A stretch of DNA of 27,879 nucleotides from positions 1 through 27,879 of IMG/VR virus record IMGVR_UViG_2648501730_000022, one strand, 5' to 3'. The DNA comes from a virus. Taxonomy: Duplodnaviria; Heunggongvirae; Uroviricota; Caudoviricetes. Below the pieces are notes generated by a model that had not been told where the DNA came from, made no database searches, and was given only the letters and a program-made list of their open reading frames with translations. The translations under genes were made by a program, and so were the position numbers. Below are positions 1 through 27,528 of the stretch, piece by piece; within the stretch, counting starts at the first letter, position 1, and each line of letters opens with the position of its first letter.

Positions 1-1983
1 TTACCTCTTTCTCAGGAAGTTTAGTCTCCAGGATTCCCGGGGCGGTTCAGTCACCTTGATAATGTATGCTTCAAACAGGTCACTAAACTTGTTAGTTTCA
101 CCGTTGATCTCAACATCTAATTGTTGCTGATTTTCCCATTCGATAATCAGATCATTACCTTCGAAAGTTCCTGGCGTGCTACCCTGATTTTTGATTCGAA
201 TAACCGGAGTCGGCAATTCATAGGTAACAGTAGGATTCTGGTTAATCAGTTCTACCCAATCGGATCGAGCGATGATACCGAAAGCACAAACTCGGTAATC
301 ATAAGAGCGATCTTTAGCCAGTGCATTGACACTGAAAATTTGCTGTGAAGTCTGACCGAGCTTAATCCAGTTAGGTGATCCGCTTACACGGTAATCAATC
401 TGGAAACCGTAGCGGTTAAAATCTTCCGGTGCATCCCATGTCAAAGTAACGTTCTTACCATAGATGGTTTCACCAGTTGCCTTAATTCTGAAATTAGTAG
501 GCTTCTGTACTGTCATTGAATCCGGTAAACCACTTGGTCTATTGTCTGGAGTTGCCGCATAGTTCAGGTCAGTATAAACTTGAGAATTATATTCTGTGGC
601 GGTGATAGTCATCATCCCAGCAATACCAGAATCAATCGAGCGATCAATTGCAGTAATACGCCATAAGGAATTATTCAGCTTCAATTCATCATAGGTTACG
701 CTGATAACGTCCCAAACTTCGGCAGTGAATGCGTCAGTAGTCATAAAGCTGATAACCTGAGTGATACGAGATTTATTTCGTTCTACACTCGCAAGTTTAT
801 CAATCTGGGCTTTAGACTTAACAAAACGATATTCAATATCTTTAGCGATAATTCGACCATCTTGACGAATAGTAGCATCGTTTTCAGCATCAGCCGGATA
901 ACGTAGCATTTGCTCTGAATAGTCAATTGATGGTTCTTGATACATCGCGTTAATGGTATTGAAATAACCGTTAGTGCCACCTGTTTTCAGTGATACCTTA
1001 CCCATCATGATATTGTCTTCATTGAAGGTATGCTTAACAATATCAGGAGCATCCAGTTTCAGGGTAATTCTTCCGAAGGATTCGAACATCACCCCGCCGA
1101 AAGTCTGCATAAGGCTAGTCAAGTTCTCTTTAAAGCTGGCGTTCGGATCACATGCACCGTTTGAATGTAGGTCCATCTGGCGTACTTGTTTACGTACTTT
1201 CAGGAATGAATCAACGTTGATGTTTTCAATTGGTACTGATAAACCATATTTTTCATTTGTTAGGTAGTGGAAAATCTGGTCCACGCCGTTAGTGCTAGCC
1301 TCAATAGCATTAGTTTCAAGGTTACGAATCTTTAAGCCCATAACATCGACTGCTACCTGGCTATTTGGCTGGAGAATATCAACACCAGCAGCAAGAGATT
1401 TGTCATCACGACGTAACACAATACACATGGTTGCAATACCATTGCCTTTGTAGTTGTCGTTCCAGTCTGATCCTAAATGACGTTTTGCCAGTGACAAAGC
1501 GGTGTTAGGATTCTTACCCGTGCGGAACTCAACTTCTAAGACTTTCCGGTATTCTTCTTTAATGTTGCCTTTGTCCAGTACACCATCACGGATCGTCATG
1601 TTCTTACCAACAAGAACATTTTTGTTATCGATAAACAGTGCTTTGTAATGGTCGATTTCACCCTCGGCAATTGCGAAGATTTGCACTAACTTATTGTTTT
1701 CTTGCTTGGAAATTGCCTTATAAACGCAGATTGCACCCGTGCGGGTAGTACCAAAAAGAACGGGTAATACTGTCTTAGGATCGTTTGATGTTCCTAGTGT
1801 CACCGCATTATCCGGGCTTTGTACTTTCGGTGTTTTTGGTGCGCCTACAGTGGAAGCGATCAAGGTCATTGCACCAGCAGCCATACCGATAGCGACTGCG
1901 GTCATAACCGAAAATGTTGCGGCTGCCGCCATCCCCGCCGAAGCACCAGCAATAACCGCGCCTACCAATACTTCAAATCCCAT
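1..1983 (-). CDS. Tail tip / central fibre protein, lambda J N-terminal-like with fibronectin-III-like segment (660 aa)
   Basis: Complete ORF, TAA stop at 1-3. Gly/Ala-rich hydrophobic N-terminus, then a segment resembling the lambda J N-terminal region (recalled motif, not aligned) and an FN3-like block (TLTWDAP...YDYRV). Last gene after the M/L/K-like genes; much shorter than lambda J. Confidence 0.55.
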   Translation of the reverse strand: MGFEVLVGAVIAGASAGMAAAATFSVMTAVAIGMAAGAMTLIASTVGAPKTPKVQSPDNAVTLGTSNDPKTVLPVLFGTTRTGAICVYKAISKQENNKLVQIFAIAEGEIDHYKALFIDNKNVLVGKNMTIRDGVLDKGNIKEEYRKVLEVEFRTGKNPNTALSLAKRHLGSDWNDNYKGNGIATMCIVLRRDDKSLAAGVDILQPNSQVAVDVMGLKIRNLETNAIEASTNGVDQIFHYLTNEKYGLSVPIENINVDSFLKVRKQVRQMDLHSNGACDPNASFKENLTSLMQTFGGVMFESFGRITLKLDAPDIVKHTFNEDNIMMGKVSLKTGGTNGYFNTINAMYQEPSIDYSEQMLRYPADAENDATIRQDGRIIAKDIEYRFVKSKAQIDKLASVERNKSRITQVISFMTTDAFTAEVWDVISVTYDELKLNNSLWRITAIDRSIDSGIAGMMTITATEYNSQVYTDLNYAATPDNRPSGLPDSMTVQKPTNFRIKATGETIYGKNVTLTWDAPEDFNRYGFQIDYRVSGSPNWIKLGQTSQQIFSVNALAKDRSYDYRVCAFGIIARSDWVELINQNPTVTYELPTPVIRIKNQGSTPGTFEGNDLIIEWENQQQLDVEINGETNKFSDLFEAYIIKVTEPPRESWRLNFLRKR

Positions 1984-6807: not shown

Positions 6808-7314
6808 TTAAGAGATTTTCAAAGTCTGCTTAGTGCCAGTCTTCTTAATGTTATTGAGTAAAGCAGCCGGAGGATTGCTTAACCAATAGTAATGAAAACC
6901 GCTTTGCATACTGTTATAAGGAACAGTGACAGCAGCACCACCCAAATTAACGGTTATATTCCCCGCTCTACCGTTCTGGAGATATACAGCCATAGTAGGA
7001 GTACCGCCATTGAATTGACCAACGATAACGCCAATCAGACGCCCTACGCCCACGTTTTCGGGGTTCTCCATAGATCCTTTACCGCGCATGTCAGTTACTG
7101 GATAGTTTGAAGCAGTTACACCCCAGTTATTACCCAATGAAGTAGACCACGCAGCAGTAGCTACAACCGTATCCATACCACGACCACACATCGCACTCAT
7201 GTTAGCTGGGCGACTAACCTTTAATGCGTTCATTGCTGCGCTCATCCATCGTTGACCAGTTACAGAAACAGCAGATGACCCGACCCAGCCAGGCTTATTA
7301 ACGACATTCGCCAT
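6808..7314 (-). CDS. Hypothetical tail-associated protein (168 aa)
   Basis: ORF between the tail tube gene and the chaperones; Gly/Asn-rich beta-type composition; no recognisable motif. Confidence 0.35.
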   Translation of the reverse strand: MANVVNKPGWVGSSAVSVTGQRWMSAAMNALKVSRPANMSAMCGRGMDTVVATAAWSTSLGNNWGVTASNYPVTDMRGKGSMENPENVGVGRLIGVIVGQFNGGTPTMAVYLQNGRAGNITVNLGGAAVTVPYNSMQSGFHYYWLSNPPAALLNNIKKTGTKQTLKIS

Positions 7315-7329
7315 TTTGATTACTCCAAT

Positions 7330-7356
7330 AAAAAAGCCCCACCATTAAGGCAGGGC
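7330..7356 (-). terminator. Rho-independent terminator after the tail tube gene
   Basis: Minus-strand RNA GCCCUGCC-UUAAU-GGUGGGGC followed by U6 (plus-strand A-run 7330-7335). Near-identical to the terminator after the capsid gene. Confidence 0.7.
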
Positions 7357-7362
7357 TTATAA

Positions 7363-7482: not shown

Positions 7483-7956
7483 TCATCCGGCAGTGAAGAT
7501 TTGCTGTTTCAGCGGAGCACCATCCACCGCGAAGGTAAACTCTTTGGTTACAACTTCTTCATCGCCACCGTTCATAGCAACTTTAGAAATGAAGCCGTTG
7601 AAAGCGGTGCGAATACCAGTCTGTTTTGCTGCGTCAACGTAATATTCTACTTTAATCTGAATACGAGTACCGTCTTCGGCAGCTTTGATCAGTTTTTCAT
7701 GTACCGCATCGCCTGGGATGTAGTTAACGGTCAGAGTCAGATCAGGAACGTTCAGCTTCCCTACCAGTTTACGGTTATACTGAGAAGAGAAGGATTTAAC
7801 TTCTACAGTACCGCGCTCGATACCAGTTTCAGGAAAACCAGCACACTCTTTAATTTCTTCGTAGCTTTCGTGGTCGAGAGCGGTATTAGTGGTGTCCGCG
7901 TGATAGAACAGACTTACCAGACCACCAGTAAAAATATCTTTGAATTGCTGAGACAT
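7483..7956 (-). CDS. Putative major tail tube protein (157 aa)
   Basis: Short protein upstream of the chaperones and tape measure, followed by a strong terminator. ATG at 7954-7956 preceded by a GGGG Shine-Dalgarno. Homologous to the N-terminal ~160 aa of the 277-aa protein at 11595-12428 (shared DIFTG, FP.T, LTL, KA.ED motifs). Confidence 0.5.
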   Translation of the reverse strand: MSQQFKDIFTGGLVSLFYHADTTNTALDHESYEEIKECAGFPETGIERGTVEVKSFSSQYNRKLVGKLNVPDLTLTVNYIPGDAVHEKLIKAAEDGTRIQIKVEYYVDAAKQTGIRTAFNGFISKVAMNGGDEEVVTKEFTFAVDGAPLKQQIFTAG

Positions 7957-7986: not shown

Positions 7987-8005
7987 CGGGGGAACTAGTC
8001 CCCCG
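7987..8005 (-). other. Hairpin CGGGGGA-ACTAG-TCCCCCG between fibre and tail tube genes
   Basis: 7-bp perfect stem; the same stem sequence recurs at 25555-25573. Confidence 0.5.
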
Positions 8006-8012
8006 ACTTTTA

Positions 8013-11000
8013 TTATTTAGTTGCTTTCAGTTCGGCAATTTCTTTCTGTAATGCTTCGATCTGGGCTTTATATTTGGCGTCCATTTCCTGCATAGCTTTG
8101 ATGATTAAAGCATTGACAGCAGAGTTAGAAATAGTCTTGATTGCTTCTGGATTTTCTGGATCTTCGGTGGATTGAATACCTACTGCTTCCGGCAATACTT
8201 CTTCCAGATCCTGAGCAATAATACCTACTTCGCGTTTAATCACACTACGGTCTTTAAGAGATTTAACTTTATCGTAGGTGTAGACTTTCAGTGAGTTTAC
8301 TTTCTCTAATGCGCCGTCCTGTAATTCTTCCTTGTTAATCTTCAAACGGGAGTCAGAGCGAATGTAAACATCGTTAAACGAACCGTTACGACCTGCGGTA
8401 AAGTCACCAGCAGCGTTAAAGTCAAAGTTAGTATCATGAACATGGAGACGAACAAGAGCGTTACCGATAGTACCGTCAGGAACGTGCACACCCATTGCTG
8501 CAATGTGATATTTACCCCAATGCGTCGCTTTCCATACGTTATGTGCCGAGTTGGTGGATTGAGGACACCCAACCATAAGACCAGCAGCACGGTCACGCCA
8601 GCTAGCCCAACTACCGCCAGCAACTTCACCACGAATCAGGCCATTACCGCCACCGGTTACAGTACCAGATTCCAACTGGATCATCTTATCCGCAAGTTTC
8701 CACGTCTGGGCTTGTTTCTGACCACGGAAGCGAATAACACCAGCATCATCGGAATACATCAAACCTAGTTCTAAGCCATTCGGATCTCTAAACCACAAAT
8801 GCTTATTACCAGTGCGCTTAAATTCAATATCAGCACCGTTAAGCGTGATATTACCGCCAGTGTGAATTGCTTGAGGCTTAACAGTACCGTTGATGGCAAA
8901 CTCAATTGCCGTAGTACCCGGACCGCCCGGACGTTGGGTATACCAATGCCAACCGCTTTCATCAGCACATTCAAATACTTGTTTACGAGCATCAGCGCCC
9001 CATGCACGAATATTGAAACTAGAAGTAGCTGTACCCTTACCCCAGCGAATCAGACCAGCAGATTCCAAATCACCGAAGAATTTAGTTTTAATCGCACCAG
9101 TTGCTAAAGTACGTTCAGTGGTGAAGTGAGCACCTTTACTATCTTCAAGCTGTATAACGTTATCACGAGCGTTATTGCTATCGCCCCAATGACTCAAACG
9201 GAAATAGTCGCGGGATTGTCCAGCACCAGCATCAAATGTTAAATATTGGCCTTTAATGTATGTGTTTCCAGCAAAACGAGCAGCACGACTTGCACGTTCT
9301 AAGACTAATGCACCTTCGTTACCATCACCACCCAAAGTAACATTACCGCTACCCAGATTGTAAATGAATGGACGATAGCCGTTCCAACCACCAAATTTAT
9401 CATTTTCGGCAGTAGACAGAAGATATACGTTTTGACCATCATTACGCCAGAATGCACCATAGTTACCGTAAATCATACGGAATGCATCACTGTTAGCAGC
9501 TACATATTGACCATTGGTGTATACAATTTTGGTAGCACCTGTGCTTAAAGATACTTGACCACTTGCTTCTAATTTAACAAAGTTTTTACCTTCGTCACTA
9601 TACCATTGAAAATCGTTAGTATCTGTAGAACCAAAACCAAACCAGCCTTGACGTTTATTAGCCCCGTCTCGCTGATCCATATATTCAAAATAGTTACTAC
9701 GACCAGTAGGACGCCACATACGAATCGCGTTATTGCCTTGCAGATGAAGTCTATCGACAAATAAACCATCACTACCAACAATTTTTAATACTTCTTTTTG
9801 GTCGGTGGAACCAGTAGCCAAACGATACACATCACCTTGAACAGTTTCATGCCATATTGTTTCCGCCGCACGACTGCGGAATTTACGCATATATTTTTTA
9901 TTGTTGTCTGGTACGTTATTAAGGCTCACAATATCATAGGTTGCTTGTGAGTTATTATCAAACATCAACGTTCCGGCTTTGTTTTCGGTGTTGAACATCG
10001 TAATAACACGAGCATCGGTAACACCAACAGAAGGTTTAACGAGAGTTAATTCAGGAACATCATGTACTGTCAGAGTAACGCCATCAGTTTTACCGTATTC
10101 GACAATAACGTTATCGGTGTAACGACCGTAGTTAACGTAGATATCGTAGTTATCACCGGAAGTATTAACCGCAAATACTTGATGAACGTTCAGAGCATTT
10201 CGACGATAAGCAGCAATACTAACGCCTTTCGGGTTATTGTTACCGGAACGGATGACAATTTCTACAAAGTCAACCTGATCATAAGAGTTAACGTTATAAC
10301 CATTACCACCGAAGATACGAAGCATTACCATTCGACCATTCTGTGGGATCGTAGCGGTTGCGATCTTGAAGTATCCACGAGTAGCATCACCAGAAGGAAC
10401 GGTCATTCTAACGTTCTTGATGAACATCTGATCAACTTCGGCTTTACTATACACACCCAATTCAGTCGGAGTCGGCTTATCACCTTCGTGATACATGCGG
10501 TAGCTGAATCGCTTATTACCATCTTTATCAAAGCCATAGGTTTTAACTTGAGATGAGCTAGACCCATAGTGGAACTCAAAACCGCGACCGTGTGCTTTAC
10601 CGCCAGAATGAGGAATGTTAAGGATTAAGTTACCCCAACCTTCGGCATTGTTTGGACGGAATGCACCAAAATAATCAAGGTTACGAGCACCAGCATCATC
10701 AAAATAGTTAGCTGTTTTGGTTAACAGATAGCCGTGATGGTAAGTGTTGGTATTCTTCTTGATGTAAGCAGCATCGGCACTACCTTCAATAGAATCAATT
10801 CGCTGGTTAGCTGCGGCAATTGCGGCATCAGTAGAAGATTTATTCTGGTCTACCTTGTTGTTAATTGCTGTATGGTTGCTATTAACTGTCCCCGTAAGAT
10901 TGGTGATCTTCGTGTCGGCATCGCGTTTATTATTTGCTACGGTCGTTTCTATGGCTGATTTATTTGCTGAGACAGTATTCGTTAAGTTAGTAACGTTGGT

Positions 11001-11513
11001 ATTAGTCTGATCAACTCGTGCATTAATATCTGTCTTGTTCTTGTTAATTGTTGCGTTGATAGTATCGCGGGTTGAAGTAATAGTCTGATTCAGTTCAGTC
11101 TTAGCAGCCGCCAGAGCGTTAGCCGCTTCGGTTTTATTGTTACCTACTGTGGTAGTCAAAGCATCAATTCGTTTGTTGGCTGCGGTGTCGCCAGCAGTGA
11201 TTGAAGCATTGAGAGCATCACGGGTAGAAGTGATAGTCTGATTCAGTTCAGCTTTAGCACTAGCCAGATTATTAGCGGCTTCTTGTTTGTTGGAAGCAAT
11301 AACACGGTCAGTGCTAGTTTTGTTATTGTCTACTTTCGTATTCAGTTCAGCGTGTTTTTCTGGAGAAACACTAATTTGGACTACGTTATTATTTTTGTCT
11401 TTGGTGTAAATCACATGATCCGCCAACTGTAAGGCGATTTCACCCTGTGATAATTGTTCCGGCGTTGGTTTTTTACCCGCCGTCTGTGTGCGTTTAAATT
11501 GGATTGATTGCAT
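8013..11513 (-). CDS. Long side tail fibre (1166 aa) with C-terminal intramolecular chaperone / peptidase S74-like domain
   Basis: ATG at 11511-11513 with GAGGTGA Shine-Dalgarno. Internal ~52-aa repeats near the N-terminus; a central motif (DESGWHWYTQR) recalled as P2 gpH / lambda Stf-like; C-terminal ~110 aa (SDSRLKINKEEL...VGIIAQDLEEVLPEAV...) matches the self-cleaving chaperone of T5 pb1 and K1F endosialidase. Confidence 0.75.
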   Translation of the reverse strand: MQSIQFKRTQTAGKKPTPEQLSQGEIALQLADHVIYTKDKNNNVVQISVSPEKHAELNTKVDNNKTSTDRVIASNKQEAANNLASAKAELNQTITSTRDALNASITAGDTAANKRIDALTTTVGNNKTEAANALAAAKTELNQTITSTRDTINATINKNKTDINARVDQTNTNVTNLTNTVSANKSAIETTVANNKRDADTKITNLTGTVNSNHTAINNKVDQNKSSTDAAIAAANQRIDSIEGSADAAYIKKNTNTYHHGYLLTKTANYFDDAGARNLDYFGAFRPNNAEGWGNLILNIPHSGGKAHGRGFEFHYGSSSSQVKTYGFDKDGNKRFSYRMYHEGDKPTPTELGVYSKAEVDQMFIKNVRMTVPSGDATRGYFKIATATIPQNGRMVMLRIFGGNGYNVNSYDQVDFVEIVIRSGNNNPKGVSIAAYRRNALNVHQVFAVNTSGDNYDIYVNYGRYTDNVIVEYGKTDGVTLTVHDVPELTLVKPSVGVTDARVITMFNTENKAGTLMFDNNSQATYDIVSLNNVPDNNKKYMRKFRSRAAETIWHETVQGDVYRLATGSTDQKEVLKIVGSDGLFVDRLHLQGNNAIRMWRPTGRSNYFEYMDQRDGANKRQGWFGFGSTDTNDFQWYSDEGKNFVKLEASGQVSLSTGATKIVYTNGQYVAANSDAFRMIYGNYGAFWRNDGQNVYLLSTAENDKFGGWNGYRPFIYNLGSGNVTLGGDGNEGALVLERASRAARFAGNTYIKGQYLTFDAGAGQSRDYFRLSHWGDSNNARDNVIQLEDSKGAHFTTERTLATGAIKTKFFGDLESAGLIRWGKGTATSSFNIRAWGADARKQVFECADESGWHWYTQRPGGPGTTAIEFAINGTVKPQAIHTGGNITLNGADIEFKRTGNKHLWFRDPNGLELGLMYSDDAGVIRFRGQKQAQTWKLADKMIQLESGTVTGGGNGLIRGEVAGGSWASWRDRAAGLMVGCPQSTNSAHNVWKATHWGKYHIAAMGVHVPDGTIGNALVRLHVHDTNFDFNAAGDFTAGRNGSFNDVYIRSDSRLKINKEELQDGALEKVNSLKVYTYDKVKSLKDRSVIKREVGIIAQDLEEVLPEAVGIQSTEDPENPEAIKTISNSAVNALIIKAMQEMDAKYKAQIEALQKEIAELKATK
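11051..11300 (-). repeat. Tandem in-frame ~156-nt repeats inside the fibre gene
   Basis: Two near-identical blocks (...AGTCTGATTCAGTTCAG...) encoding repeats of the form A.AK.ELNQTITSTRD.INA.I; further diverged copies upstream. Confidence 0.6.
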
Positions 11514-11544: not shown

Positions 11545-11562
11545 GGGAGGCGTTAACCTCCC
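11545..11562 (-). terminator. Hairpin GGGAGG-CGTTAA-CCTCCC between the 277-aa gene and the fibre gene (attenuator-like)
   Basis: 6-bp GC stem followed by a U-rich tract on the minus strand, upstream of the fibre Shine-Dalgarno. Confidence 0.4.
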
Positions 11563-11594: not shown

Positions 11595-12428
11595 TTAGTA
11601 TTCGCCGAAATCGATCCGGTCAGTCTTAGCCACTGCGCCAATTTCGCTAGGTGTCGGTTTCTCATTGGTGGAATATACCTTGATCCATTCAGAACGACCG
11701 TTTTCCTGAATATTTCGGACACGTAAACGCGGTGCGCCAGAAGTATTACAGGTTAATTGCCATGCGCCATGCTCATTAGCTTGAAGGTGAATTAATGCTG
11801 TGTCGGTTGAATATGGATTACCGCTAGCAGTTCCCTTGTAAGTTACGAAACGGTTTCCGGCTAATGCCTCGCTGTCAATCGGACCCGTGAATGGATTTAC
11901 ACCAGCACCCAAACCAAAATCACCCTGACGTAAGATCCGGCCTTCGGTAGCAATACCCCTTGCCAAAATCCCGCCATCTGGTTCAAGTTTAAATTCCAGT
12001 GTTACAGCTTTGTTATCACTACCACGGGTTTTATGTGATGTGACGTAAGCATCGAATATACAAAAGTACCCTGTGTTAGCAGCACTATAGCCAGAGTTCA
12101 CAACATAGAACATACGGAAGCGTAAAGGTGTTTTATCCTCTACCGCTTTCATCAACATTGCTTGATGTTCATCGTCAAGAACACGGTTTAATGTGAGTGT
12201 TGTCGGTTCCAGTCTACGATAACCAGCAAGTTTCCCCGTAGCGTCCTGATCGTACTCTTCCAGAGTTTCTATCTCTGTGGATTCGGTTAGCGTAGGGAAT
12301 GCTGCGATGTTCTCCATAGAACTAAAGCTAGGATCGAAAAAGTCGACCTGATTGTCTATCTGGTTAGAGATCGACACTTCAACATGTGATCCAGTGAAAA
12401 TATCTAAGTTATCTTGTGTAATATTCAT
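11595..12428 (-). CDS. Tail-tube-like paralog with extra ~115-aa C-terminal domain (277 aa)
   Basis: N-terminal ~160 aa homologous to the 157-aa tail tube protein; unique C-terminal domain. Confidence 0.45.
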   Translation of the reverse strand: MNITQDNLDIFTGSHVEVSISNQIDNQVDFFDPSFSSMENIAAFPTLTESTEIETLEEYDQDATGKLAGYRRLEPTTLTLNRVLDDEHQAMLMKAVEDKTPLRFRMFYVVNSGYSAANTGYFCIFDAYVTSHKTRGSDNKAVTLEFKLEPDGGILARGIATEGRILRQGDFGLGAGVNPFTGPIDSEALAGNRFVTYKGTASGNPYSTDTALIHLQANEHGAWQLTCNTSGAPRLRVRNIQENGRSEWIKVYSTNEKPTPSEIGAVAKTDRIDFGEY

Positions 12429-13325: not shown

Positions 13326-15332
13326 TCATTCAGCGGAGATGTGAAGAACTTTCAGAGCTTCCGGCTGAACTACGGTGAAGTCCAGGTCTACCCAGATACG
13401 CGGAACGATAGCAGACTGTGCGCGGTAAGTGGTGTCGTCCATATCCAGTTCCAGACCACCCCATTCACCGATCATGATACCGGAGAAGTCACCCAGAACG
13501 ATGTGGTCTGCCGGAATAACGCCAGAAGTAACTACATCGTAACCAGCCAGTTTGCCGTTTTCGATGATATAACCGGAAACGCCGTTATCTTTCAGGGTAG
13601 ATTCCAGTTCAGCAGCAGTTGCACCGCTCATTGCAAACTTGATGGACTGTGCCGGAACGCCAGCGTCGGTCAGTGCTGCAATTTCTTTCAGGAAGTCTTT
13701 GTAGCTAAAAGCGGCTTTCTTAGTAACGCGACCACCGTCTACCAGTTGCTTAACCAGACCTTTCGGACCGCGCTCGTTGTCTTTGTCAGACAGAATCAGT
13801 TGTTCCAGTTTGATCCGAACAGATTTGTTAATGTGATCAGTGATCAGGGTAGCAATATTCGGAACAGTTTTCAGAGACTGACGGCTGATCGGGTTGCCAC
13901 CAGCAAAAGTTTTCGGAGCCATTTTCACGTTTTCAAAGCTAGCCTTCGATTCGGGGGCACTTCCATTTTCATCAACAAAACCAAAGGCTTCGACGCTGGA
14001 AGCAGTCATTTTTGGTACTGCAATCGGGCTATTCAGACCAGACAGAACAGTCACACCCAGACGACCCAGAACAGACTGTGGAAGCAGCATTTCTACATAG
14101 GATTCGGTCAGCAGTTTTTCGTCGGTTACAGCGGTCAGAGTAGCTTTGGTGTTACCTTCGGAAGCAGCACGCAGAGCAGCAGCCGGAACGAATACAGAGC
14201 CACCGCGAGCAGCACGACCACGCTGCATTGCAGCACCAGCAGCCATAGCGGAATATTCAGCTTCGTTAGCGCCGAGCACGTCGCCATCTACCAGGGAGCG
14301 GATTACGTTATTAAGATCGAAAGTTTTTTCCATGATTTGTTCCTTATTAATTTGTTCGTTATTACGTTGAGCATTGGTAATGTTATTTAGTGCCTTAGTG
14401 CGGAATGCTTCCGGCGTCATATCTTTAACTGCCAATGCGCGTTCTAATTCTTCGTCGTTAATATTTAACTCACGAGCGATTGCTCGGATTTCTTCTTCGT
14501 CTTCTTCGGAACGTTCAGCCACTTCTTCGATTTTTTCTTCTTCAACCGGAGCGGCTTCACGTTCTTCTTTTACTTCTTCTGTTTCCCGAACAGTTGAACT
14601 ATCATCATCAACACTTTCAGGATGTTTAGCGTCTTTTCCGTCTTCGAGATTTTCATCTTCTTTATTCTCTTCAACTTGGCGCTCTTGAGTTTCTTCTACT
14701 TCCGGTTCTTTATTTTCTTCTACCGGAGTTTCTTCAACCTGAGCGGGTTCTTGTTCTTCTTTGATTTCTTCGATTTGTTCTTTAGTCATATCGCGTTTAG
14801 CCTCCAAATTAACTGTGATAGTATTTAGAGAGCGATTCAGACCCACGGTGTCGTCTGCGGGAACAGACACCCATGAAACCTCGTGAGGAATCCATTTAGT
14901 AACAATCAATTGTCCTTTGGTGTAGTCGATGTGATATTCTTTAATGTCATAACCGACAGAAATTTTTTCCATCGTACCTTCAATGACTTTATTACGAATA
15001 TCATTAGCCAAAGTGCCATGCTTAGAGAATTTAACCAGAGCACGACCTACGTTATCCGCATCGATTCGAGCGTTACAAACGACACCAATATGATTATCGA
15101 AATTATGATTGAACAGCAACGGAGCGTTATTATTCAGACGAGACAGATCAACCGCTTCCGGTGTATGTACCAGAATTTCATCTAATACCACCATTTCTTG
15201 ATTTTGCTCATCCCAGAATTGGCGCTGATAAGGCTGTTCACTGGAGAAAGCAATTTCAAATTCGTATTGATCATTCTGCCCTTCGTTAATAACTCCACCG
15301 TAACCGTTAAGATCGCGGCGAAATTTAAGCAT
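13326..15332 (-). CDS. Fused prohead protease (HK97/S78-like) / scaffold-like acidic coiled coil / major capsid protein (668 aa)
   Basis: N-terminal ~170 aa carry a His (HNFDNHIG) and the ExSxVxxPA signature (HEVSWVSVPADD) typical of HK97-family prohead proteases; residues ~180-300 are Glu/Lys-rich and helical; the C-terminal ~350 aa look like an HK97-fold capsid domain. Confidence 0.7.
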   Translation of the reverse strand: MLKFRRDLNGYGGVINEGQNDQYEFEIAFSSEQPYQRQFWDEQNQEMVVLDEILVHTPEAVDLSRLNNNAPLLFNHNFDNHIGVVCNARIDADNVGRALVKFSKHGTLANDIRNKVIEGTMEKISVGYDIKEYHIDYTKGQLIVTKWIPHEVSWVSVPADDTVGLNRSLNTITVNLEAKRDMTKEQIEEIKEEQEPAQVEETPVEENKEPEVEETQERQVEENKEDENLEDGKDAKHPESVDDDSSTVRETEEVKEEREAAPVEEEKIEEVAERSEEDEEEIRAIARELNINDEELERALAVKDMTPEAFRTKALNNITNAQRNNEQINKEQIMEKTFDLNNVIRSLVDGDVLGANEAEYSAMAAGAAMQRGRAARGGSVFVPAAALRAASEGNTKATLTAVTDEKLLTESYVEMLLPQSVLGRLGVTVLSGLNSPIAVPKMTASSVEAFGFVDENGSAPESKASFENVKMAPKTFAGGNPISRQSLKTVPNIATLITDHINKSVRIKLEQLILSDKDNERGPKGLVKQLVDGGRVTKKAAFSYKDFLKEIAALTDAGVPAQSIKFAMSGATAAELESTLKDNGVSGYIIENGKLAGYDVVTSGVIPADHIVLGDFSGIMIGEWGGLELDMDDTTYRAQSAIVPRIWVDLDFTVVQPEALKVLHISAE

Positions 15333-26179: not shown

Positions 26180-26537
26180 TGGTTATCCTCCATTAAATTT
26201 GCGTAATTTTATTTATTGGTTTTACGCACAATCTAAGCGCCTAAATCGCATTCTAACGAAGGGAAAGATCCAGTAATGGTAAGGGTTAGGAAGTGGGTTA
26301 ATAGTCGCGTAGCGACCGCGCCATAAGTGAAGTGATCACGTTTTAGAATCTCACACGCACATCAAATACCAGGGTGCCGAAAACTCCCTTTATTTCATCC
26401 ATGGAACAGTACCTTTTTAATTTGTCAAGTATTAATTTCTTAATTTAATTACTAAATCTCACCCCAATAATTGAAAAAATATCAAAAATCAATAAAGTAA
26501 GCATCTAAAAGTCAGTCCATACCAAAAGAGGTATAAA

Positions 26538-27305
26538 ATGAAAAACATTATCGCTGCTATCATGCTTTCTGCTACTGCTTTCGGTGCTGATGCTGCGTCC
26601 TTTGATTGCACTAAGGCTACTACCAAATCAGAGAAGTTTATTTGTGCTAATGAGTCAATCTCCGCACTGGATTCTAAACTTCATGAAGTATATGTTAAGG
26701 CTGTTAAGATTAATCCGTCTCTTAAACAAGAGCAACGTAACTGGAATAAAACTGTTCGTGACACAATGATCAATATCGGGCAGATTCAGCCACTGGAGGC
26801 TGTATACAACGCTCAAATCCAAAACTTGATGAATGTATTATCTAAAGAAGAAACCGCGTCAGGGAGCGTTTCAGAGACTTCTGCGAAGGTTGAAGAAGAA
26901 CAACCGAAACAGGAAGAAAAAGTGGTGGAAGAACCGAAGGTTGAAGATAAACCAAAAGGATTTACCGGAGACATGACATTGCAATGCGATGTTCACTATA
27001 GCTGGGAAATCCAAGACGGGGTAGAAACAAAAGCAGTTAAAGACATTGGCTATCCTCGTTATAACTCTGGTGAACTTAAACTTAAAGTAAAAGACGGGGA
27101 AATTATTGAATTTGTGTATCGTGATAATTATGACGCGCATAAAGCAAAGACAAAAACAGTGACGCATCAGAATGGCGCAATGCAATATGAAGGCCAAGTG
27201 GATAACAAAAAATATTATGTGTGGCGTGATAATCAAGATATGATTCGCTTAGAAGTACATAAAAAATATTCAAGAACATACATTGACCAGTACGGGTGCA
27301 AATAA
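26538..27305 (+). CDS. Secreted protein with LprI / DUF1311-like N-terminal domain (255 aa)
   Basis: Signal peptide MKNIIAAIMLSATAFGADA; then FDCTKATTKSEKFICANESISALDSKLHEVY...QRNWNK, the DUF1311 pattern; AGAGG Shine-Dalgarno before the ATG. Confidence 0.6.
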   Translation: MKNIIAAIMLSATAFGADAASFDCTKATTKSEKFICANESISALDSKLHEVYVKAVKINPSLKQEQRNWNKTVRDTMINIGQIQPLEAVYNAQIQNLMNVLSKEETASGSVSETSAKVEEEQPKQEEKVVEEPKVEDKPKGFTGDMTLQCDVHYSWEIQDGVETKAVKDIGYPRYNSGELKLKVKDGEIIEFVYRDNYDAHKAKTKTVTHQNGAMQYEGQVDNKKYYVWRDNQDMIRLEVHKKYSRTYIDQYGCK

Positions 27306-27528
27306 TTATGAAATTCAATAACATGAAGATCACAAAAGATTGGTGGGATGCGATGAAAGCTAACCACCAGAACGATATTAATTAAGTAACATTTTAGATA
27401 TACAGCACCCAGCTAACAGATCACCTTTTATGGATTTCATTATAACCCTTTTGATCTGGAAACTATGTTAATTAGTTGATTTCTAAGCCTTGTCCTTGTG
27501 ATGGGGCTTTTTATTGCAAAATTTTTAG

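Follow-up and report, generated by a model that had tools for sequence, protein, structure and literature searches.

A gp37-Type Tail Fibre with a C-Terminal Peptidase_S74 Chaperone and a Predicted gp38-Type Cap in a Siphovirus-Like Enterobacterial Prophage

Introduction

The L-shaped side fibre pb1 of the siphovirus T5 (PDB 4UW7/4UW8) matures by cleavage of its Thr1263–Ser1264 bond, a reaction in which Ser1264 is activated by Lys1269 and leaves with the chaperone, and which is blocked by the S1264A substitution; cleavage directly unmasks the receptor-binding tip, and a chaperone that is retained blocks tip function (PMC4690869). In phage S16 the last 113 residues of gp37 are autocleaved at DLNVS^SDRRIKK, exposing the surface on which gp38 docks, and in T2-like phages the cleavage site reads DVYIR^SDGRLKI (PMC7917993). 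Gp37 of RB49 (Krischvirus, Straboviridae) also bears a self-cleaving chaperone, and gp38 attaches after its removal (PMC9569957). The K1F endosialidase (PDB 3GW6) and the GA-1/phi29 neck appendage (3GUD), tailspikes or appendages with enzymatic β-helices, are founding members of the Peptidase_S74 family. In the Sepvirinae, short-tailed, Stx-converting temperate E. coli phages that include Shigella phage 75/02 (gp55/gp56) and P13374, an S74-bearing fibre (NDVQIR|SDKRNK) is found with a 170-residue adhesin of the Gp38_N-only type.

Here, we describe a tail-fibre locus of an E. coli-type prophage in the window, by which we mean the whole analysed stretch of 27,879 nucleotides (IMG/VR record IMGVR_UViG_2648501730_000022, Caudoviricetes). 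We consider it quite probable that the locus as a whole specifies a gp37-type fibre that is processed by cleavage of its S74 chaperone, capped by a gp38-type adhesin and anchored by a gp36-like domain.

Results and Discussion

The tail-fibre gene (open reading frame call, 8013–11513, minus strand) encodes a protein of 1166 residues and 128.1 kDa that is a homologue of the gp37-type distal subunit of long tail fibres, matching phrog_1699 ("long tail fiber protein distal subunit") with an E-value of 7e-137 and RB49 gp37 with 71.6% amino acid identity across residues 262–1163 (902 residues, BLASTP). At the nucleotide level identity to Krischvirus gene 37 is about 80%, and the two Pfam domains found in the fibre, Gp34_trimer (aa 608–718) and Peptidase_S74 (aa 1053–1111), are both present in RB49 gp37. 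The PGAP name in public data is "tail fiber domain-containing protein", and no NCBIfam model matches either the fibre or the adhesin described below. The first-pass annotation had likened the fibre C-terminus to T5 pb1 and the K1F endosialidase, a likeness that holds for Pfam family and fold, but the sequence comparisons point to gp37 of the RB49-like T-even phages, rather than to T5 or K1F, as the closest relative. By the same comparisons the protein is classed as a T-even-type (RB49/T2/S16-class) gp37 distal fibre on a siphovirus-like, low-GC enterobacterial prophage. It differs from its RB49 counterpart in having about 210 additional residues of coiled coil (aa 52–261) and in belonging to a temperate, siphovirus-like prophage, and from the T2/S16/RB49 class at large in lacking the gp34-gp35-gp36 mount on a myovirus baseplate.

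The N-terminal domain of the fibre (11361–11513, minus strand; aa 1–51, MQSIQFKRT...GEIALQLADHVIYTKD) is homologous to the gp36-binding N-terminus of gp37, with 37% identity to residues 4–54 of RB49 gp37 (E 3.6e-9, BLASTP) and a match to positions 6–51 of phrog_1699. At the other end, the last 63 residues of the predicted mature fibre (8358–8546, minus strand; aa 990–1052), which we predict to form an interdigitated tip with the adhesin docking surface, are 81% identical to RB49 gp37 with a dN/dS of 0.10. The docking role is predicted by reading across from S16 gp37-gp38 (PMC6851490, PMC7917993), and the AF2 monomer model of this tip, encoded 5′ of the chaperone, is poor and of moderate confidence only. 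The fibre gene as a whole is under purifying selection, with dN/dS 0.2–0.3 between relatives.

The last 114 residues of the fibre are a Peptidase_S74 intramolecular chaperone of the kind ordinary for such fibres (8016–8357, minus strand; Ser1053–Lys1166, 12.7 kDa), with autoproteolytic release predicted. The stretch in which such a domain had been proposed, 8013–8400, corresponds to residues 1038–1166 plus the stop codon; the proposed length of about 110 residues agrees with the 114 counted from Ser1053 to the end, and the sequence strings quoted in support are all present, SDSRLKINKEEL starting at residue 1053 and being followed by YTYDK and VGIIAQDLEEVLPEAVG. The HMM search that had been suggested as a check returns Pfam PF13884 (Peptidase_S74) over aa 1053–1111 (8181–8357, minus strand; profile positions 1–57 of 58) (E 8.5e-14; 52.0 bits, curated gathering cutoff 22), far above what chance would give, and public data already carry this match, precomputed, for the identical protein. 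The S-D-S-R-L-K motif (8340–8357, minus strand) supplies a serine at the first position of the domain (Ser1053, codon 8355–8357) and a lysine five residues on (Lys1058, codon 8340–8342), and across 17 aligned homologues, with identities down to 40%, none of its S, D, R, L and K residues varies. Purifying selection acts on the chaperone domain as well, with dN/dS values of 0.18–0.24 against two prophage relatives and RB49.

The fold of the domain agrees with this assignment. With an AF2 model (pLDDT 84–94) as Foldseek query, the ten best matches are all solved intramolecular chaperones (7DC3, 3GUD, 3GW6), the best being MyRF ICA (7DC3; TM-score 0.61 normalised to target, E 6e-5), and the TM-scores are modest (0.5–0.6 normalised to target) because the AF2 model is a monomer. 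A long C-terminal α-helix (8019–8126, minus strand; aa 1130–1165, model residues 191–226, pLDDT 86–94), expected to form a trimeric coiled coil, aligns with the helices that end S16 gp37 and MyRF ICA; the latter shares the logic of trimerisation-dependent self-cleavage but belongs to a eukaryotic membrane-bound transcription factor unrelated to virion assembly. For 3GW6 and 3GUD the Foldseek probability is 0.72–1.0, and the SDERHK with which the GA-1 chaperone chain (3GUD) starts is aligned to SDSRLK, but the sequence similarity to K1F and GA-1 is limited to the first ~55 residues of the domain. A PDB profile search with the chaperone returned S16 gp37 (E 6e-15), a tail fibre in 8JOV, MyRF ICA and the GA-1 chaperone, and a direct PDB sequence search with the C-terminal 168 residues returned only S16 gp37 at E<0.01. 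T5 and K1F chains were recovered from the PDB neither by sequence nor with the profile, and the chaperone is linked to them by a common Pfam model, a weak BLASTP alignment and the fold. T5 pb1 has the same Ser/Lys(+5) dyad, but the identity is 26% over 72 residues only, and the T5 chaperone is 133 residues long with long β-hairpin tentacles.

As to the site of cleavage, position 1 of the Peptidase_S74 profile falls on T5 pb1 Ser1264 and on fibre Ser1053, and BLASTP pairs TSDARLK of T5 with RSDSRLK of the fibre, which makes Ser1053 and Lys1058 the counterparts of Ser1264 and Lys1269. The Pfam match, this alignment, the PDB profile matches and Foldseek together bear out an S74-type chaperone with its nucleophile in an S-D-x-R-L-K motif, as had been proposed. 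The fibre sequence DVYIR SDSRLKI is near-identical to the published T2-like site, and with RB49 the likeness extends over ...NDVYIR|SD(A/S)RLKINKEE. Like the window fibre, S16 gp37 (6F45_A, matched with E 6e-15) has a C-terminal chaperone of 113–114 residues, with the site, predicted in our case, before the Ser of S-D-x-R-x-K (PMC7917993, PMC6851490); the tip sequences before the site differ, and P1 is Arg in the window fibre and Ser in S16. We predict the scissile bond to be Arg1052|Ser1053, with Ser1053 as nucleophile and Lys1058 as general base. The mature fibre should then end ...NDVYIR at Arg1052; an end at ...YIRSD, as given in the first-pass annotation, has to be moved, since the T5, S16 and T2-like sites put it two residues earlier. 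Because P1 is Arg, a tryptic digest alone would be unable to map the cleavage site.

An inactive S74-like domain that stays attached to the virion fibre, as a structural element or distal knob, strikes us as very improbable, for the whole SDxRLK motif, including its Ser/Lys dyad, is invariant, DVYIR|SDSRLKI is near-identical to T2-like sites reported as cleaved (PMC7917993), in T5 tip function is blocked by a chaperone left on (PMC4690869), and here such a chaperone would occlude the gp38 socket. Cleavage and its exact bond, as well as the adhesin capping and the anchoring discussed below, are what we infer from T5, K1F, S16 and RB49.

The second gene downstream of that for the fibre, overlooked in the first-pass annotation, encodes a gp38-type tail-fibre adhesin (6808–7314, minus strand; 168 residues, 17.6 kDa). 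Its product matches phrog_1121 ("tail fiber adhesin", E 3.3e-33) and carries a Gp38_N attachment domain (7189–7305, minus strand; aa 4–42; Pfam PF21721, E 1.9e-15, 57 bits, cutoff 25) that also matches the attachment domain of S16 gp38 (6F45_D, E 1.2e-4) and is near-identical to that of RB49, with 71% identity to RB49 gp38 over aa 7–48. In tblastn the adhesin is 44% identical, over its full length, to "receptor recognizing protein Gp38" of the Stx phages, which is also the PGAP name of its orthologue in E. coli VTB96775v. The PF05268/polyglycine-sandwich domain, for which RB49 gp38 scores 242 bits, was not found by Pfam in the adhesin (168 residues vs 258 in RB49), which is therefore not a canonical T2/S16 gp38; its C-terminal domain is of the Stx-phage short type and unrelated to the PGII sandwich of S16. 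Two of the three docking tryptophans of S16 gp38 are present (W10 and W23), the third position being Asn in the adhesin, Tyr in RB49 and Trp in S16.

The tube gene stands between the fibre and adhesin genes, and the order fibre, tube, Gp38 is kept in diverged E. coli relatives, with the adhesin gene intact in all E. coli relatives that were examined. In RB49, genes 37 and 38 likewise lie apart (PMC9569957), by about 106 kb, so adjacency of the two genes is not required. In Stx phage 75/02, by contrast, the Gp38_N-only adhesin gene comes directly after that of the S74-bearing fibre, which is collagen-like, 494 residues long and unrelated to gp37 upstream of its chaperone. In favour of a pairing, a Proteus relative has a fibre without chaperone and also lacks the adhesin gene. 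Against it, a Salmonella relative has a chaperone-bearing fibre with three small unknown ORFs in place of a Gp38_N gene, so that chaperone and gp38 are not obligatorily coupled. A search for covariation between tip and adhesin N-domain gave no signal: in VTB96775v the last 63 residues of the tip are only 33% identical and the adhesin is almost unchanged.

Most likely, by analogy with these systems, removal of the chaperone exposes a docking site for the 168-residue adhesin as a small receptor-binding cap. Because in the closest relatives cleavage lets a gp38-type adhesin dock, the mature fibre C-terminus is probably an adhesin socket rather than a receptor-binding tip. If the fibre instead worked as T5 pb1 does, its own cleaved C-terminus would bind the receptor, and the Gp38_N protein would be a remnant or serve another structure. 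T5, in which cleavage unmasks the tip directly (PMC4690869), is the precedent, and the non-adjoining adhesin gene, the Salmonella relative that does without a Gp38_N gene and the missing third docking Trp can be read in the same sense. We nevertheless regard this as improbable, given that the fibre is a gp37 homologue with a tip 81% identical to that of RB49 gp37, that RB49 gp38 and the adhesin N-domain share 71% identity and the W/W/non-W pattern, that the separation of genes 37 and 38 in RB49 deprives distance of its force, and that the adhesin gene is kept intact in the E. coli relatives. T5, whose unmasked tip binds O-antigen directly, has no gp38-type cap.

The gene between fibre and adhesin (7483–7956, minus strand) encodes a 157-residue tail tube protein that matches phrog_158 ("major tail protein", E 3e-21) and scores 28.3 bits with Pfam Phage_TTP_11, just below the cutoff of 28.4; it is followed by a terminator-like hairpin at 7358–7334. 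A 7-bp G+C-rich hairpin (7987–8005, no strand assigned) in the 56 nt that separate the fibre stop codon from the start of the tube gene was considered as a further terminator and rejected, as it has no proper U-run on the coding (minus) strand and a folding z-score of only −1.5.

Immediately upstream of the fibre gene lies the gene of a 277-residue protein, the predicted fibre anchor (11595–12428, minus strand), which combines a tail-tube-fold N-domain with a gp36-like C-terminal domain ending in ...KPTPSEIGAVAKTDRIDFGEY (...IDFGEY). This combination of tube fold and gp36-like end is a more unusual feature than the chaperone. The N-domain matches phrog_158 over aa 10–154, the protein is 30% identical to the 157-residue tube protein (E 1e-14), and AF2 modelling with Foldseek identifies lambda gpV (E 7e-8); T5, too, encodes a second tube-like protein, its "baseplate tube" protein. 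The C-terminus matches RB49 gp36 in tblastn (E 7e-4) and in hhalign (probability 88%, E 3e-6), aligns with positions 396–495 of 496 in phrog_16472 and has a terminal IDFG(T/E)(F/Y) motif in common with RB49 gp36. A PDB sequence search with this C-terminal domain gave nothing significant, and its AF2 model is of low confidence (pLDDT 30–50). Probably, then, judging from these matches, the 277-residue protein serves as anchor for the fibre, in the manner of gp36 with gp37. Homologues of gp34 and gp35, as present in the RB49-like phages, were not found in the window; of gp36 there is the C-terminal domain only, fused to the tube-fold protein.

Tentatively, as a reading that we find plausible but hold at slightly short of probable, the whole T-even distal half-fibre, comprising gp36-type joint, gp37 shaft, chaperone and gp38-type cap, may have been moved to a tail of the non-contractile type. 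The gp36 joint would in that case have been fused to the tube-fold protein, which would form a specialised ring as socket for the fibre N-domain (IQFKRT...TKD). The joint from (I/M)DFG(T/E)(F/Y)-COOH to an IQFKRT N-domain recurs in RB49 gp36/gp37 and, in the Proteus relative, where the fibre is split, between its two pieces, a recurrence that suggests a portable head-to-tail connector code.

On the account that we favour, assembly would proceed as follows. The C-terminal coiled-coil helix and the α/β body of the chaperone would bring three chains into register, the α/β body templating the folding of the interdigitated β-helical tip. In the correctly folded trimer, Ser1053, activated by Lys1058, would attack the Arg1052–Ser1053 bond in each chain, and the 12.7-kDa chaperone would depart to leave a mature 115-kDa fibre ending ...GSFNDVYIR. 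One 168-residue gp38-type adhesin (6808–7314) would then cap the exposed base of the tip, docking via its helical Gp38_N domain and itself presenting the receptor-binding surface, while at the other end the gp37-like N-domain of the fibre would probably plug onto the gp36-like C-terminus of the 277-residue tube-fold protein.

The tail genes in the window are of siphovirus type (tube, tape measure, Dit and J-like tip), and no sheath gene was found there. The prophage may be defective in this genome, with this copy never assembled into virions, because its tail-tip gene is interrupted by an element of the IS3 family; an end of that family occupies window positions 1–49, and the match to intact prophages begins at position 45. 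The interruption, together with a segment (26532–27368) whose identity of about 95% to Krischviruses shows recent exchange, could be taken to mean that the fibre gene is a non-functional relic, a piece of Krischvirus-like gene 37 in a decaying prophage, its processing without biological role. We give this very little credence. The fibre ORF is intact, and 142 blocks of the collection contain the identical protein; an intact 1258-residue tail-tip gene stands alongside it in four of the five loci retrieved (L003–L005, L007), L003 being the GCA_016843425.1 locus; the dN/dS across the whole gene speaks against decay; and anchor, fibre, tube and adhesin genes are syntenic across E. coli relatives, as are anchor and fibre across those in Salmonella and Proteus. 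GC content, too, is uniform at about 42% over the prophage, with 42.6% in the fibre gene and 41% in RB49 gp37; considered as an acquisition marker, it gave no contrast, and no direction of transfer was inferred from it.

The S74 domain had also been offered as the explanation for the lack of a separate fibre-assembly chaperone gene. A Tfa-type or gp57A-like chaperone was indeed not found by PHROGs or Pfam among the scanned ORFs of the window, which ends inside the tail-tip gene, and tblastn with an approximate T4 gp57A sequence gave no match in the window; T5 pb1 is likewise the side fibre of a siphovirus without a separate fibre chaperone. The explanatory half of the claim is less secure. S16 gp37, which has an intramolecular chaperone, reportedly needs the general chaperone gp57A (Marti 2013 and Denyes 2017 are named for this), so an S74 domain alone is no proof of chaperone independence.

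Conclusions

The chaperone finding in itself is of small significance, the domain annotation being correct and already made by public pipelines. It does fix the predicted C-terminus of the mature fibre at Arg1052, and constructs for host-range engineering or receptor binding must include the chaperone and probably the 168-residue adhesin too. The wider locus is of moderate interest, as a complete gp37/gp38-type module, with about 80% nucleotide identity, occurs both in Krischviruses, which are virulent, and in a temperate prophage lineage that is widespread. The fusion of tube protein and gp36-like domain is pointed to as the adaptor enabling this transfer across morphotypes, and the recurring joint sequences suggest that a connector code of this kind would let fibre segments chain and swap across myoviruses and siphoviruses.

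Results and Discussion

The fibre gene (8013–11513, minus strand) is a single ORF encoding 1166 residues, in which the stretch 8013–8400, singled out in the first-pass annotation as an S74-type self-cleaving chaperone, corresponds to residues 1038–1166 and the stop codon. The strings quoted there are all found in the fibre sequence, and a Pfam-A search bears out the domain itself, well past chance: Peptidase_S74 (PF13884, "Chaperone of endosialidase") matches residues 1053–1111 (E 8.5e-14, profile positions 1–57 of 58), scoring 52.0 bits where the gathering score is 22. The match starts at the motif SDSRLK (residues 1053–1058; Ser codon 8355–8357, Lys codon 8340–8342), and 114 residues lie between Ser1053 and the C-terminal end, inclusive, in line with the approximately 110 residues proposed. 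Pfam further places Gp34_trimer at residues 608–718, and PHROGs classes the protein as phrog_1699, "long tail fiber protein distal subunit" (E 7e-137).

Of 29 homologues found in the database for the C-terminal 227 residues of the fibre, 28 have a precomputed PF13884 match; in an alignment of 17 of these, with identities down to 40%, the motif residues S, D, R, L and K never vary. The profile built from this alignment matched, in the PDB, S16 gp37 (6F45_A, E 5.8e-15), the 8JOV tail fibre, the MyRF ICA domain (7DC3) and the released GA-1 neck-appendage chaperone (3GUD), the chain of which starts with SDERHK, aligned with fibre SDSRLK. The AF2 model, with pLDDT 84–94 across the chaperone, comprises an alpha/beta body and a 35-residue terminal helix, and every one of its best 10 Foldseek matches in the PDB is an intramolecular chaperone (7DC3, 3GUD and 3GW6). 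With respect to the catalytic residue, Ser1264 of T5 pb1 occupies position 1 of the Pfam profile, and BLASTP pairs ...TSDARLK... of T5 with ...RSDSRLK... of the fibre. The chaperone segment has a dN/dS of 0.18–0.24 against two prophage relatives and RB49. Conservation, solved relatives, fold, catalytic residue and selection thus agree in supporting an intramolecular chaperone at the fibre C-terminus, one of a known kind already caught by automated annotation.

In T5, the S1264A mutation stops processing, the cleaved bonds being Thr1263–Ser1264; the serine, activated by Lys1269, departs with the chaperone (PMC4690869). S16 releases its final 113 residues at DLNVS^SDRRIKK, and the aligned site in T2-like Yersinia phages is DVYIR^SDGRLKI (PMC7917993). 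The fibre reads DVYIR SDSRLKI at this position and, by analogy with these three sites, the scissile bond is predicted to be Arg1052|Ser1053. Cleavage there would leave a 1052-residue fibre of 115.4 kDa with ...GSFNDVYIR at its end and release a 12.7-kDa chaperone with SDSRLK at its start. The first-pass reading of an S74-type chaperone with predicted autoproteolysis at SDxRLK is supported in its core, but the mature end first proposed, ...YIRSD, is two residues longer than the one predicted from the T5, S16 and T2-like sites, ...YIR.

The earlier comparison with T5 pb1 and K1F endosialidase holds for the class of chaperone, but the closest family of the fibre is the RB49/T2/S16-class gp37. Over roughly 2.5 kb, the gene shares about 80% nucleotide identity with gene 37 of RB49-like Krischviruses; residues 262–1163 are 71.6% identical to residues 71–977 of RB49 gp37, and residues 1–51 are 37% identical to its N-terminus. 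RB49 gp37 has both Pfam domains of the fibre, which differs from it by an inserted coiled coil of about 210 residues (residues 52–261; 10728–11360, minus strand). Within the insert lies a direct repeat, EAANNLASAKAELNQTITSTRDALNASI and EAANALAAAKTELNQTITSTRDTINATI, and the counterpart of the insert in a Proteus relative is a separate protein. The public collection records an identical fibre protein in 142 of its blocks.

The remainder of the window is not that of a T-even phage: it encodes a large terminase, portal, S78-protease::capsid fusion, head–tail proteins, tube, chaperones, tape measure, Dit and J-like tip, with no sheath gene in the window, and is about 90% identical to E. coli chromosomal prophages. 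The fusion of major capsid protein and S78 prohead protease (13326–15332, minus strand; 668 residues, PF04586 and PF05065) is kept in all relatives examined. Nucleotides 1–49 match, at 100% identity, the end of an IS3-family element (IS1203 by annotation) in Stx phages, and the match to intact prophages begins at position 45, and because of this the J-like tail-tip ORF (1–1983, minus strand) is cut after 660 residues, compared with 1258 in relatives. This could reflect either disruption of the prophage in this genome or merely a sequence that ends at the IS. A second, more recent segment common to this locus and RB49-like phages is the LprI-family ("lysozyme inhibitor") region at 26532–27368 (plus strand), about 95% identical in nucleotides to hypothetical genes of the Krischviruses JSE, JK32 and Brandy. 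G+C-rich hairpins lie on both sides of the fibre gene (7334–7358, 7987–8005 and 11545–11562). That at 7358–7334 (minus strand) is strong and terminator-like, with a U-run, and stands 3′ of the gene for a 157-residue tube protein, just upstream of the adhesin start, where it may set the tube:adhesin expression ratio.

The proposal that no separate fibre-assembly chaperone gene follows fits our scan: of the ORFs scanned in the window, which ends inside the tail-tip gene, none is recognisably Tfa-type or gp57A-like. Two caveats attach to this argument, namely that gene 38 was historically a "fibre assembly" gene, and that S16 gp37, although it has an intramolecular chaperone, is reported to be aided in its production by gp57A.

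The partner missed by the first-pass annotation is a gp38-type adhesin of 168 residues (6808–7314, minus strand), encoded two genes downstream of the fibre, between the tube and tape-measure chaperone genes. Residues 4–42 match Pfam Gp38_N (57 bits, cutoff 25), residues 7–48 are 71% identical to RB49 gp38, and the protein matches phrog_1121, "tail fiber adhesin" (E 3.3e-33), and S16 gp38 (6F45_D, E 1.2e-4); the polyglycine GP38 domain is absent from its C-terminal two-thirds. That part instead resembles the 170-residue "Gp38" of Stx-converting Sepvirinae, which is 44% identical to the adhesin over the full length; there, the gene directly follows that of a collagen-like fibre, also S74-ended (NDVQIR|SDKRNK). 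Fibre and adhesin genes need not be adjacent, since about 106 kb separates gene 37 from gene 38 in RB49. The order fibre–tube–Gp38 is kept in diverged E. coli relatives, in one of which PGAP names the orthologue "receptor recognizing protein Gp38". An E. coli database protein, P0021 (303 residues), unites Gp38_N, the GP38 polyglycine region, a gp37 tip and the Peptidase_S74 chaperone in one ORF; it has the look of a gp38::gp37-C-terminus hybrid, but may instead be an artefact of recombination or assembly.

Efimov et al. describe a self-cleaving chaperone in RB49 gp37, as in most gp37 proteins of T-even phages, and a gp38 adhesin that attaches once the chaperone is gone (PMC9569957); in S16, the N-terminal helical bundle of gp38 docks on the interdigitated domain of gp37, at its base (PMC6851490, PMC7917993). 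Here, the adhesin probably caps the processed fibre tip, and chaperone removal would most likely license its docking, a coupling that we infer and that is not universal in the lineage. The Salmonella Telelkebir relative (L012) has a 995-residue chaperone-bearing fibre and no Gp38_N gene; in its place are three paralogous ORFs of about 100 residues (L012 11928–12918; N-termini AYWVSAEI, AGWISERL and AFWTSSAI), which may encode alternative tip proteins. In the Proteus mirabilis relative (L013), the fibre is without chaperone and the adhesin gene is also absent.

Directly upstream of the fibre gene lies that of a candidate fibre anchor of 277 residues (11595–12428, minus strand), so that the fibre gene is flanked by two tube-protein paralogues. 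Anchor residues 13–163 adopt a tail-tube fold, with a phrog_158 match, 30% identity to the 157-residue tube protein and, from the AF2 model, a Foldseek match to lambda gpV (E 7e-8). Its final 95–100 residues or so can be aligned over their whole length, up to the last residues, with the C-terminus of RB49 gp36 (tblastn E 7e-4; hhalign probability 88%, E 3e-6) and match phrog_16472 at positions 396–495 of 496; the anchor ends ...KPTPSEIGAVAKTDRIDFGEY (with final ...IDFGEY) and RB49 gp36 ...KPTPADVGAVPLNAVIDFGTF. The Proteus fibre is split (L013 8882–11516) into a 198-residue proximal piece, with an IQFKRT N-domain, a coiled coil and the end ...LIMDFGTF, and a 675-residue distal piece that starts anew with an IQFKRT-type N-domain and has no S74 chaperone. 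In all three cases (anchor, RB49 gp36 and Proteus proximal piece), the product of the next gene starts with an IQFKRT...GE(I/L)...TK(D/N) N-domain. In T4, the gp37 N-terminus is bound by the gp36 C-terminus (PMC9603124). The anchor is likely a tube-fold ring protein with a gp36-type socket for a gp37-type fibre, a reading that we keep to the sequence level because the model of the C-domain is of low confidence. The anchor belongs to an unannotated family, without a Pfam match, that is conserved across E. coli, Salmonella, Providencia, Edwardsiella and Proteus.

The split Proteus fibre suggests a reusable head-to-tail joint, together with co-loss of chaperone and adhesin. The most novel element of the locus is the putative tube::gp36-like anchor, together with the IDFG(T/E)(F/Y)/IQFKRT joint that recurs.
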